In this document: positions 37,083-39,335 of the stretch, piece by piece
How positions within the stretch are numbered: position 1 is the stretch's first letter
Layout of the letters: each line of letters opens with the position of its first letter
From: Candidatus Methanomethylophilaceae archaeon
GTDB taxonomy: Archaea; Thermoplasmatota; Thermoplasmata; Methanomassiliicoccales; Methanomethylophilaceae
Assembly (NCBI GenBank): GCA_050944155.1
Contig: JBMNQN010000001.1
Span: 1-64,000, forward strand
DNA: 64,000 nt
Direction of reading: 5' to 3'
Program-made: the position numbers and the translations under genes
The notes under the pieces: model-generated
What the model was told of the DNA's origin: nothing
The model's database searches: none
The model's input: the letters and a program-made list of their open reading frames with translations, nothing else

Positions 37083-37583
37083 TCAGTCTTCGCAGATTAT
37101 TATACATGCGTCTTTCTGTTCTCCGTCTTCCGTGCGGAACGCCATGAACGTGCCGTCGGAAGGGTCGATGACTATTGCGAATCCGGTGCCGTTTCCGAAC
37201 ATGGAAACGTGCGTTTCTATATCCGTTTCGGACATGTAGCATCCGAATCCGGGATGGGAATGGTACCAGCCCACAATCGAGCCTCCGGTTTCGTCCATGG
37301 AGGCGAACAGTTCCTCGAATCCTTCGGGATCGAATCTCACGCTGGTTTCCGTCGAATCCAGTTCGGACGTCGCCGTGCCTTCGGCCACCGCATATTCTCC
37401 GCCGTCGTCTCTGTAAACCTCTCCGAGAACGAATCCCATGACTTCTTTTCCTTCGGCGAAACCCTCGTCGGCGTGATTAAGCATATTTCCAAGCGCTGAT
37501 TCGGAAACGAATAGGTCCGCTTTCTTCACCGTGCGTTTTCTGTAGGTTCTTTCCTTCTTTTCGAAAGAGATGATTTTAGGCAT
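37083..37583 (-). CDS. JAMM/MPN+ metalloprotease, Rpn11/CSN5-like
   Basis: GKEVMGFVLG and IVGWYHSHPGFGCYMSETDIETH (E...HxH-x7-S-x2-D); AIVIDP. Confidence 0.92.
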   Translation of the reverse strand: MPKIISFEKKERTYRKRTVKKADLFVSESALGNMLNHADEGFAEGKEVMGFVLGEVYRDDGGEYAVAEGTATSELDSTETSVRFDPEGFEELFASMDETGGSIVGWYHSHPGFGCYMSETDIETHVSMFGNGTGFAIVIDPSDGTFMAFRTEDGEQKDACIIICED

Positions 37584-38061
37584 TGCCGTCACCGAATCTG
37601 ACTTCAGCCCTGAAGGCGGGTTTGTTTTCGATATACCAGCGGGACGCCTTCATGCAGGAATCCGTTCCGTAGGGACTCTTGGGATTCGGGTCTGCCAGAA
37701 GATTCTCCAGGCCCATGACGAACGACGTAAGGTTGGAACCGAAGTTCCAGTTGTCCAATATTTTCACGCAGACGTATCCGCCGTCTTCAGGCATCATTAT
37801 ATTGGGGTGGAAAATAGGGGTTTTCCAGGATGCTCTGGGTCTTTCGAAAGGATATTCTTCGGAGAGTATCAGTTCGAACCTGTGTTCTGAAGACATTTCG
37901 GTTTCAGAGATTCTCGCCGGCGAGTTCATCAGAACCACGCTAAGGGTTATGGGAAAAACCGCGTTCTCCGGAATACTTGGTATGTTCAGTCCGAGATACC
38001 CGTTCAGGCCGTTGATTTCGTTATTGATTCTTTTGACGAGAATCGGTTTGACCAGTCCCAT
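37576..38061 (-). CDS. ubiquitin-conjugating enzyme E2 (UBC fold)
   Basis: KRINNE, YPFERP, TPIFHPNI...GYVCVKILDNW, LLADPNPKSP. Confidence 0.9.
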   Translation of the reverse strand: MGLVKPILVKRINNEINGLNGYLGLNIPSIPENAVFPITLSVVLMNSPARISETEMSSEHRFELILSEEYPFERPRASWKTPIFHPNIMMPEDGGYVCVKILDNWNFGSNLTSFVMGLENLLADPNPKSPYGTDSCMKASRWYIENKPAFRAEVRFGDGNA

Positions 38062-38297
38062 CAGATTCCGCCTTCCGGGTCCGGAATCATTTCCACAACG
38101 TCGCCGTCCGAAAGGTTGGTTTCGGCGATGGTACGGCTTCCCAGAAGCAGTTTCGGCCCTTTTCTGAGGATGAAAGCACCCGCCCCCTCTCCCCAGTAGT
38201 CCGCCGCCGCATCGATTATGTCGGATATTTTTTCGTAAGGTTCCAGCTCCATCCGAATGGATGCTCCGGCCGCCGTGTTTACCACCGTAATTTTCAC
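38061..38297 (-). CDS. ubiquitin-like modifier precursor (ends GG-I)
   Basis: 78 aa; aligns by eye to ubiquitin with one gap; C-terminus PEGGI; GAGG ribosome-binding site; TGATG coupling to the E2. Confidence 0.85.
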   Translation of the reverse strand: MKITVVNTAAGASIRMELEPYEKISDIIDAAADYWGEGAGAFILRKGPKLLLGSRTIAETNLSDGDVVEMIPDPEGGI

Positions 38298-38307
38298 TGT
38301 CGTTTTT

Positions 38308-39066
38308 TCACTTCCTCGTATGATTCGGACAATCTGGATCGATATCCAAAGAAACAGTGTCCAAAGTTCCTTTTTCCCCGTTGTAGTACGTAATTCCGCG
38401 GACGCATAATTCCTCTCTTCCCGAAATAATCTTTTCGGCTTCCCTCACCTGCAATGCCGCGATTATGGACGTAGTGGTAATCTCCGCTGCGGTATGGGGA
38501 ACGAACATGTGGGAATTTCCCGTACAGGAAAACCTCAGTTCTGCGATTTTTGAGTGGGTGGAATTCATGGCGCACTGAAGACAGGGGCCGTCCGCAACGG
38601 TCTGTACTTTTCCGGACATACCGTCGGTCGCACCGTCGATGTACGGGATTCCGTAGTATTTCGCGTGGGAGTTCACGTGAAGTCTGGCACTTATGTTGTC
38701 GAGACATCCGAGAATCAGATCGAAATCCCAGGACTTCAGTTCCCGTACGTCCGAAACTATTCCTTTCACGTCGGCGTCGGGAGACAGTTCGTTCGCTCTT
38801 TCGGCAAGTATGTCGCATTTCATGGGTCCGCCCGCGTCTTCTTCTCTGAAAAACACGCAGCGGCTCAGATTGGATTTTACGATATTGTCCGTATCTACAA
38901 CGGTTATGTCCCTGAAACCGGCCAGAACCGAACATTTCACGGCTTCGTTTCCCAGGGCTCCCGCGCCTACGACGAGAATCCTGGAATCGGCTATGCGGTC
39001 GATGTCAATCCATTCGATTCTTTTCATGCGGTCGAATCTGTCGGAATCCCGTTCTCCGGTCTTCAT
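38308..39066 (-). CDS. E1-like ubiquitin-activating enzyme (ThiF/MoeB/E1 family)
   Basis: VVGAGALGNE, DxDxxxxSNLSR, LDNISARLHVN, Zn site CLQC + CPNH, candidate catalytic Cys in FSCT. Confidence 0.9.
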   Translation of the reverse strand: MKTGERDSDRFDRMKRIEWIDIDRIADSRILVVGAGALGNEAVKCSVLAGFRDITVVDTDNIVKSNLSRCVFFREEDAGGPMKCDILAERANELSPDADVKGIVSDVRELKSWDFDLILGCLDNISARLHVNSHAKYYGIPYIDGATDGMSGKVQTVADGPCLQCAMNSTHSKIAELRFSCTGNSHMFVPHTAAEITTTSIIAALQVREAEKIISGREELCVRGITYYNGEKGTLDTVSLDIDPDCPNHTRK

Positions 39067-39137: not shown

Positions 39138-39335
39138 ATGGCGGAACTGCCCGAACATTCCCACTGCCTGTTCTGCGGCGACCCTGTCGCTTACGGAGAG
39201 CAATTCTGTTCCGAGGACTGCGCCGGGCATTACGCAAAAAAGAAGAAAAAGGATTTTCTCAAAGAAAACGGATTTTACATCATAGCCGCAATCGGCATAA
39301 TCGTTCTTTCCGTCATTTTCTGGATGATGCGCTGA
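39138..39335 (+). CDS. small membrane-anchored zinc-finger protein (DUF2116-like)
   Basis: HSHCLFCG....FCSEDC followed by a C-terminal TM helix. Confidence 0.78.
   Translation: MAELPEHSHCLFCGDPVAYGEQFCSEDCAGHYAKKKKKDFLKENGFYIIAAIGIIVLSVIFWMMR

Follow-up and report, generated by a model that had tools for sequence, protein, structure and literature searches.

The DNA analysed here, called the window throughout, is the stretch of 64,000 nucleotides at positions 1 to 64,000 of contig JBMNQN010000001.1 from a Candidatus Methanomethylophilaceae archaeon (GenBank assembly GCA_050944155.1). Its minus strand carries, at 39066..37083, an operon of four abutting or overlapping genes in the order E1-Ubl-E2-JAMM. 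Our subject is the second of these genes, which encodes a small ubiquitin-like protein (Ubl), together with the three enzymes encoded around it and the relation of the whole to ubiquitin systems. The features of the operon, with lengths in amino acids (aa), are as follows.

38061..38297, minus strand: Ubl gene, 78 aa, GTG start, predicted ubiquitin fold, C terminus PDPEGG-Ile (list of open reading frames [ORFs], AlphaFold2 [AF2] model, RNA-library contig)
38064..38084, minus strand: codons of the Ubl tail, Pro72-Asp-Pro-Glu-Gly76-Gly77, and of the cap, Ile78
38151..38153, minus strand: Ubl Lys49 codon (AAA), aligned with ubiquitin Lys48
38163..38165, minus strand: Ubl Arg45 codon, aligned with ubiquitin Ile44
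38308..39066, minus strand: E1, ThiF-type adenylating enzyme, about 252 aa from the ATG at 39066 (Pfam ThiF, 3.8e-42)
37576..38061, minus strand: E2, conjugating enzyme of the UBC fold, 161 aa (Pfam UQ_con, 2.6e-15)
37083..37592, minus strand: Rpn11-like JAMM/MPN+ metalloprotease, 169 aa (Pfam JAB, 1.3e-14)

The original prediction, a hand reading of this DNA, had described a 78-aa Ubl ORF at 38061-38297 that is colinear with human ubiquitin, with roughly 19 identities in 76 positions. The ORF is present as described, and HMMER returned the same register in gapless alignments, with residues 6-77 of the window Ubl on ubiquitin residues 5-76 and, for the family profile, positions 7-78 on ubiquitin 4-75. 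Residue n of the window protein thus corresponds to ubiquitin n-1, which sets Arg45 on Ile44 and bears out the proposed placement of Lys49 on Lys48. Among the identities read by hand, those at ubiquitin V5, T7, G10, I13, E16, E18, P19, I23, G35, L43, K48, L50, R54, T55, N60, G75, and G76 were recovered, and M1 and I3 join them when residue 3 is followed by the single insertion. The change of Ile44 to Arg, the replacement of the LRLRGG tail by PDPEGG, and the terminal Ile78 behind the di-glycine (GG) were all confirmed in the window Ubl. Statistics for the single sequence are marginal, with mono-ubiquitin chains matched at E values of 0.4-1; of the 35 Protein Data Bank (PDB) sequences matched at an E value of ≤10, 34 are ubiquitin, ubiquitin-derived proteins, or the ubiquitin-like domain of Rad23.

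The structure of Ubl was modelled with AF2 from an alignment of 42 relatives. In the resulting model (predicted local distance difference test [pLDDT] score of 90.3), the strands and the helix lie at ubiquitin's places, offset by one residue, and over about 76 residues the protein has a beta-grasp fold in which strands and helix follow one another as in ubiquitin. Among the Foldseek matches listed for this model are ubiquitin, NEDD8, SUMO2/3, and a Bacteroides ubiquitin-like protein (template modelling score of 0.78-0.85; root mean square deviation [rmsd] of 1.3-2.7 Å), and the best of those listed are ubiquitin, NEDD8, and ubiquitin-like domains; identity to ubiquitin chains is 20-26% over 72-78 columns. 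As to the comparison with ubiquitin, SAMP, MoaD, and YukD that had been suggested, the matches listed are of the ubiquitin type, with no MoaD, ThiS, SAMP, or Urm1 title among them. Furthermore, when each of the 42 relatives was scanned against Pfam, the ubiquitin family PF00240 was matched at an E value of ≤1 by 23 of them (best, 7.2e-7), Rad60-SLD by 17, YukD by 15, TUG-UBL1 by 11, and ThiS by 4. The curated thresholds of the MoaD/ThiS/SAMP family (PF02597, TIGR01687) were not reached by Ubl; on the window protein, PF02597 scored 12.6 bits against a cut-off of 22.5 and covered residues 58-77 only. The AF2 model thus supports the assignment of Ubl to the ubiquitin type rather than the MoaD/ThiS type by fold. 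The original prediction had placed Ubl closer to ubiquitin than to MoaD/ThiS/SAMP, a view that is upheld by the fold, by the per-member Pfam scan (23/42 versus 4/42), and by the enzymes of the operon.

Among solved structures, the E1 best matches the adenylation domain of yeast Uba1 (7e-24), ahead of MoeB (4e-14). The closest solved relatives of the E2 are UBE2E1, UBE2N, and UBE2T (about 1e-10), and its HPN motif and catalytic Cys align with those of UBE2E1 and UBE2N. For the JAMM protein, the solved relatives are, in order, yeast Rpn11 (4e-14), CSN5, and Caldiarchaeum Rpn11 (7e-8), and it matches the NCBIfam desampylase model at 1.9e-12, below the cut-off of that model. None of the 101 loci compared has an additional gene inside the operon; in divergent loci, a gap between E2 and JAMM corresponds to an N-terminal extension of the JAMM protein.

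The closest relatives of Ubl are annotated as hypothetical proteins and come from metagenome-assembled genomes of Methanomethylophilaceae and Methanomassiliicoccaceae. A profile search found Ubl in 183 of 201 Methanomassiliicoccales genomes (127 of the 140 of high quality) and, in a sample of the phylum, in 83 of 301 genomes, among them many families outside the class; within that sample, it was not found in families f8-f11 of the same class. All 101 loci examined, two of which are the window itself, show the order E1-Ubl-E2-JAMM as far as their contigs extend, and in most loci the operon is set between folP/DUF2116 and a divergent SIS-domain gene. Because the operon is near-universal in the order and keeps a fixed gene order and place, it belongs to the vertically inherited core of Methanomassiliicoccales and of other Thermoplasmatota. 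Distant Ubl relatives include two Ubl-E2 fusions (P0035 and P0060), two proteins with a C-terminal extension of about 110 aa (P0036 and P0061), and one with two Ubl repeats and membrane helices (P0020).

This distribution bears on the reading that the operon is an antivirus defence module like the bacterial Bil/Bub systems and type II cyclic-oligonucleotide-based antiphage signalling systems (CBASS). Those systems share with the operon an E1, an E2, a JAB protease, and a Ubl and likewise have no canonical E3. In addition, PADLOC defence models weakly match the E1 (E1-E2 [Cap2], best 6.5e-12) and the JAMM protein (JAB/BilC, 1e-5 to 2.5e-3). Against this, Ubl and E2 match no PADLOC model, the operon occupies one fixed place in most loci, and Ubl, carried by 183 of 201 genomes, is distributed like a core gene rather than like part of a defence island. 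A further difference from the bacterial systems is that the enzymes of this core, syntenic operon score best against eukaryotic Uba1, UBE2, and Rpn11. We therefore regard a defence function of this type as highly improbable.

Lineages in which the operon has decayed bear on the function of its parts. E2 was not found in any of the 40 genomes of genus g7, in 9 of the 16 of g2, or in any of the 4 of g22. In two g7 genomes (loci L112 and L113), all that is left between DUF2116 and the SIS-domain gene is a Ubl that lacks the GG and a neighbouring MPN-like ORF that lacks HxH, E1 and E2 being gone. A g2 genome (G030, locus L114) has lost E2 and keeps E1, a Ubl without GG, and a degenerate MPN protein. 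The GG and the JAMM catalytic residues thus decay together with E2, which supports a role of the GG tail in E2-dependent conjugation. In many genomes the ORF of the relic GG-less Ubl is still intact, which suggests that its role there is other than conjugation.

The starts of two genes of the operon deserve comment. The E2 start codon overlaps the Ubl stop codon (ATC-TGA-TG). Orthologues of Ubl begin with Met-Thr two codons upstream of the window's GTG, at a codon that reads ACG in the window; since an RNA-library contig spanning 37978-39051 is identical to the window, GTG is the likely start codon. The E1 ORF stays open to 39237, and its orthologues are about 250 aa long; because the longer ORF would overlap the DUF2116 gene, the true start is probably the ATG at 39066. 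That neighbour, at 39138-39335 on the plus strand and divergent from E1, encodes a 65-aa zinc-ribbon protein (Pfam, 4.5e-14) with a C-terminal membrane helix and is syntenic with the operon in many loci.

The C terminus of Ubl is the part that a conjugation pathway would act on. Its PDPEGG tail is invariant in 17 close orthologues from the sequence search and changes only to PDPTGG, PDPQGG, or PDPVGG in more distant relatives. This invariance rests on the sequence-search sets only: the locus scan was run with a GG-containing subset of the alignment and used the pattern E[LM][ILV]PDPEGG, so that an invariant tail among loci L022-L101 holds by construction. For all counts over orthologue positions, the 101 loci were collapsed by identity to 79 distinct sequences, the window being included once. 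Behind the GG, 20 of these have no residue, 41 have one, 6 have two, and 12 have three or more, up to 15, and where the cap is a single residue it varies (R, S, A, M, F, L, I, N, V, C, and others). The GG-X tail that the original prediction had expected to find conserved is therefore not a family feature, the cap being absent in 20/79, one variable residue in 41/79, and longer in 18/79. Because the residue is variable or absent, the identity of the cap is not selected, and a quarter of the family needs no trimming. Five loci of one subclade (L050, L053, L070, L074, and L075) have a propeptide of 9-10 residues after the GG, with the pattern C-R-W-x-x-P-x-x-[C/S/Y]; the propeptide of Caldiarchaeum ubiquitin likewise starts with Cys, according to PMC5654768.

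The JAMM residues E50, H111, H113, S121, and D124 are invariant in 24 aligned sequences, some of them from cap-less operons. The alignment used 23 of 31 candidate loci and left out L022 (cut at 48 aa), L060 (a 385-aa read-through), and L076, L067, L079, L092, L095, and L097 (uncertain starts or long extensions). Since the motif is invariant although a quarter of the tags are cap-less, the conserved role of JAMM should be other than trimming; judged from these alignments, it is probably deconjugation, with cap trimming needed only in capped lineages such as the window genome. The earlier view that JAMM is required for maturation of Ubl can accordingly hold for the window genome, whose tag ends in GG-Ile, and cannot explain why JAMM is conserved where 20 of 79 tags have no cap. 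A precedent from Caldiarchaeum fits both trimming and deconjugation: there, according to PMC5654768 and PMC6043591, Rpn11 removes a 9-residue propeptide by a cut exactly behind the GG, without which E1 does not activate the pro-ubiquitin, and Rpn11 acts in deconjugation too.

We further modelled the complex of JAMM with Ubl. The interface score ipSAE was 0.85 (0.85, 0.81, and 0.85 in individual runs), compared to 0.00 for the best control, and the runs share at least 92% of contacts, with a partner pLDDT of at least 85. Of 80 solved complexes, 58 reach the mark applied, as do 2 of 110 mismatched pairs; these counts are approximate here because alignments of our own were used for the JAMM-Ubl pair. 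In the model, tail residues 71-78 contact E50, H111, H113, S121, and D124 as well as the strand V85-R86-F87 of JAMM, and Arg45, Lys49, and Leu50 contact F92, E93, and F96 in an acidic/aromatic helix. The score may reflect likeness to the solved complexes of Rpn11 and AMSH with ubiquitin and of Caldiarchaeum Rpn11 with Caldiarchaeum subterraneum ubiquitin (CsUb).

Across the 79 orthologues, the recognition surfaces of Ubl are unlike those of ubiquitin. The column of ubiquitin Ile44 holds Arg in 63 and Lys in 16, and that of His68 holds Glu in all 79; W35, G47, L51, and D66 are invariant. The hydrophobic Ile44 patch and the basic LRLRGG tail of ubiquitin, on which its enzymes and receptors act, are thus not present in the family. 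Position 49 is Lys in 52 of 79 sequences (R, S, T, N, A, Y, or Q in the others) and position 48 in 45; 76 sequences have a Lys at one or both of these positions, all 79 do once position 46 is counted as well, and no lysine column is invariant. Conservation of Lys49, which the original prediction had looked for, thus does not extend to the position itself (52/79), and what is kept is a lysine of the 48/49 turn (76/79). The Lys48 equivalent and the one-residue cap are true of the window gene, yet they are details of its lineage and not a conserved design.

These counts bear directly on the idea that Ubl builds Lys49-linked, K48-like chains that target proteins to the proteasome. Several observations are in keeping with such chains. 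Lys49 aligns with ubiquitin Lys48 and opens strand 49-51 in the Ubl model, just as ubiquitin K48 begins that protein's fourth strand. A lysine is held at 48 or 49 in nearly all orthologues, the genome encodes a 20S proteasome alpha subunit, and, as PMC5654768 reports, Caldiarchaeum ubiquitin is modified on three of its own lysines in vitro. On the other hand, no lysine column is invariant and position 49 is Lys in only 52 of 79 orthologues. Moreover, residue 45 and residues 47-50 lie in the modelled JAMM-binding face, which gives a reason for conserved basic character that is independent of chains. By this model, the basic character of residues 47-50 may be kept for JAMM recognition rather than as an acceptor site, and we consider proteasome-targeting Lys49 chains rather unlikely.

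Our preferred reading, which we hold to be likely, is that Ubl modifies proteins as a ubiquitin-fold tag, in an E2-dependent conjugation pathway of the eukaryote type that is core in Methanomassiliicoccales and other Thermoplasmatota. In the mechanism we propose, the window Ubl would be made as a precursor carrying Ile78, which the Rpn11-like JAMM of the operon would cut off to free Gly77. The short ThiF-type E1 would then adenylate Gly77, after which the catalytic Cys of E2 would take over the tag in thioester linkage and hand it on to lysines of target proteins. JAMM would also take the tag off its targets, and this would be its conserved role because a quarter of the orthologous tags need no trimming. 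Recognition would be unlike that of ubiquitin, with Arg or Lys at the Ile44 position and the acidic PDPEGG tail facing JAMM F92, E93, and F96 and the V85-R86-F87 strand, and the nearly always present lysine of the 48/49 turn could accept a further tag.

A number of points weigh against this reading. All steps of the mechanism are inferred. The E1, at about 250 aa, is short and by that length has no evident E2-recruiting domain, and no E3 gene was found in or beside the operon across 101 loci. The window Ubl has no match to Pfam ubiquitin (PF00240) at an E value of ≤1 and is accordingly not filed as a member of that family; it is ubiquitin-like in fold only. The operon has matches at 99% or more among contigs of four RNA libraries, which come from three metatranscriptome studies (biogas and anaerobic digesters), and one contig covers the E2 start, the whole of Ubl, and most of E1; RNA libraries may contain DNA, so these contigs support expression weakly and cannot show a transcript, and the lack of coverage of bins 37128-37335 and 37856-37959 and of parts of E1 in some or all runs carries no evidential weight. 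The prokaryote-only NCBIfam model TIGR01687 (moaD_arch) matches the window Ubl below threshold (18.7 bits; cut-off, 49.5) and gives sub-threshold matches in 20 of the 42 relatives. No ThiS/MoaD-family gene (PF02597) was found elsewhere in the window's genome, which is 92% complete, a result that does not imply absence. That genome also encodes, outside the window, a second E1 of the MoeB/ThiF type (G000:C6:50750-51415, plus strand; locus L102; 232 aa; Pfam ThiF, 4.6e-52) with C-terminal CxxC motifs. Because no other PF02597 gene was found and this second ThiF-type E1 is present, Ubl may have a sulfur-carrier role, alone or in addition to conjugation.

In its strict form, that reading makes Ubl a sulfur carrier of the MoaD/ThiS/SAMP type, for which the E1 would form a thiocarboxylate used in tRNA thiolation or cofactor synthesis, with conjugation absent or secondary. 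Besides the moaD_arch matches and the negative PF02597 search just described, it can draw on SAMP1 matches in 4 of the 42 relatives and on the short, ThiF/MoeB-like character of the E1. It is at odds, however, with ubiquitin-type rather than MoaD/ThiS matches among those listed for the fold and with the excess of Pfam ubiquitin over ThiS matches among the relatives. Fixed members of the operon include an E2 that has the HPN motif and the Cys as well as an Rpn11-like JAMM, the GG is lost along with E2, and the E1 scores better with Uba1 than with MoeB. Taken in this form, a sulfur carrier strikes us as improbable.

Outside the window, the same genome encodes a protein that bears on the missing E3. 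The gene (G000:C2:22248-22778, minus strand; L105:1243-1776 and L106:1501-2034) specifies a protein of 177-178 aa with an N-terminal membrane helix and a Cys-rich region, which matches zf-RING_2 below threshold (18.9-22.3 bits; cut-off, 27.3). The 23 orthologues aligned (of 24, L110 being dropped for its uncertain start) keep its eight metal ligands in C4HC3 spacing, with Ile following the first Cys and Pro following the seventh. For the model of the whole 178-aa protein (pLDDT, 83.8), there was no Foldseek match at an E value of ≤0.001; the matches listed are all RING/U-box E3 domains, with a probability of up to 1.00 and an rmsd of 2.1-2.9 Å over 48-58 columns at E values of only 0.014-0.09. 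The RING-fold gene and E2 each occur in 138 of 201 genomes: 133 carry both, 5 carry the one and 5 the other alone, and 58 carry neither. In g2 and g27, moreover, the genomes with the RING-fold gene are exactly those with E2 (7 of 16 and 3 of 6, respectively). Related genomes are not independent, so that this co-occurrence may come down to four to six separate losses, and it was counted for this one pair, with no control gene families. Its immediate downstream neighbours, in the window's family, are the genes for Pop5 and the proteasome alpha subunit. This unlinked, membrane-anchored RING-fold protein is a candidate for the missing E3.

Among known systems, the operon is a variant of the archaeal ubiquitin system of the Caldiarchaeum/Asgard type, with an acidic tail, a basic residue at the "Ile44" position, and no linked E3. 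The operon of Candidatus Caldiarchaeum subterraneum and Asgard archaea (ubiquitin, E1, E2, a small RING finger E3, and Rpn11) has in common with it a GG-ending ubiquitin-fold tag with a C-terminal extension, an E1 of the ThiF type, an E2 of the UBC fold that has HPN and the catalytic Cys, and an Rpn11-like JAMM with the E...HxH...S..D motif. The two differ in the RING gene, which is in the operon there and neither in nor beside it here, in the JAMM gene, which lies inside the operon here, and in the host, which here belongs to a euryarchaeal-type methanogen lineage. The extension of CsUb is 9 residues, compared with 0-15 and often one in the Ubl family, and its tail ends in TVGG instead of PDPEGG. 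At the Ile44 position, CsUb has Thr46 and most archaeal homologues have a hydrophobic residue, according to PMC5654768, in contrast to Arg or Lys here. CsUb was not among the PDB sequence matches of Ubl or of the family profile.

With eukaryotic ubiquitin and NEDD8, Ubl shares its length, the order and places of strands and helix, a gapless alignment at 20-26% identity, and the C-terminal GG; a single extra residue after the last GG is also found in polyubiquitin genes. It differs from them in Arg/Lys at the Ile44 position in 79/79 sequences, in Glu at the His68 position, in PDPEGG for LRLRGG, and in its missing PF00240 match. Unlike eukaryotic ubiquitin, it occurs in none of the 101 loci as a head-to-tail repeat or ribosomal fusion. 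The SAMP/UbaA/HvJAMM1 system of Haloferax volcanii likewise combines a small beta-grasp tag ending in GG with a ThiF-type E1 and a JAMM desampylase, and the Ubl family has weak similarity to moaD_arch and SAMP1. Sampylation, however, requires no E2 (PMC11354881), whereas a UBC-fold E2 is fixed in the operon here, the fold matches listed are of the ubiquitin type, and PF02597 stays below threshold. Concerning Methanomassiliicoccales and Thermoplasmatota themselves, the literature found holds two passing mentions only and none on Ubl: in PMC4453063, an MPN protein of Methanomassiliicoccus luminyensis is proposed as an Rpn11 orthologue, and a tree in bioRxiv 10.1101/2023.07.25.550441 has a "Ca. 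Thermoplasmatota E2" clade. The supplementary gene clusters of PMC5654768 ("Cluster III") may already show Thermoplasmata operons.

These data indicate that a widespread order of methanogens has a ubiquitin system of this kind among its core features. To our knowledge, the only archaeal ubiquitylation of the eukaryote type to be reconstituted to date is that of uncultured Caldiarchaeum, with studies also made in Asgard lineages. Ubl keeps the ubiquitin backbone with both recognition surfaces rewritten and so offers a natural test of how a tag is read by E1, E2, and JAMM. The E2-less lineages are natural knockouts, in which the GG, the JAMM catalytic residues, and the RING-fold protein have decayed or been lost too. 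It is possible, if on present evidence doubtful, that Methanomassiliicoccales, which have cultured members, possess a full ubiquitylation cycle outside Asgard and TACK archaea, with E1, E2, a membrane-anchored RING-fold E3, and an Rpn11-like deubiquitylase, a recognition code (Arg45 and PDPEGG) unlike that of any studied ubiquitin-like protein, and perhaps chains formed through the lysine of the 48/49 turn. A cultured organism would then be available in which to test ubiquitylation in archaea and its connection with the proteasome.

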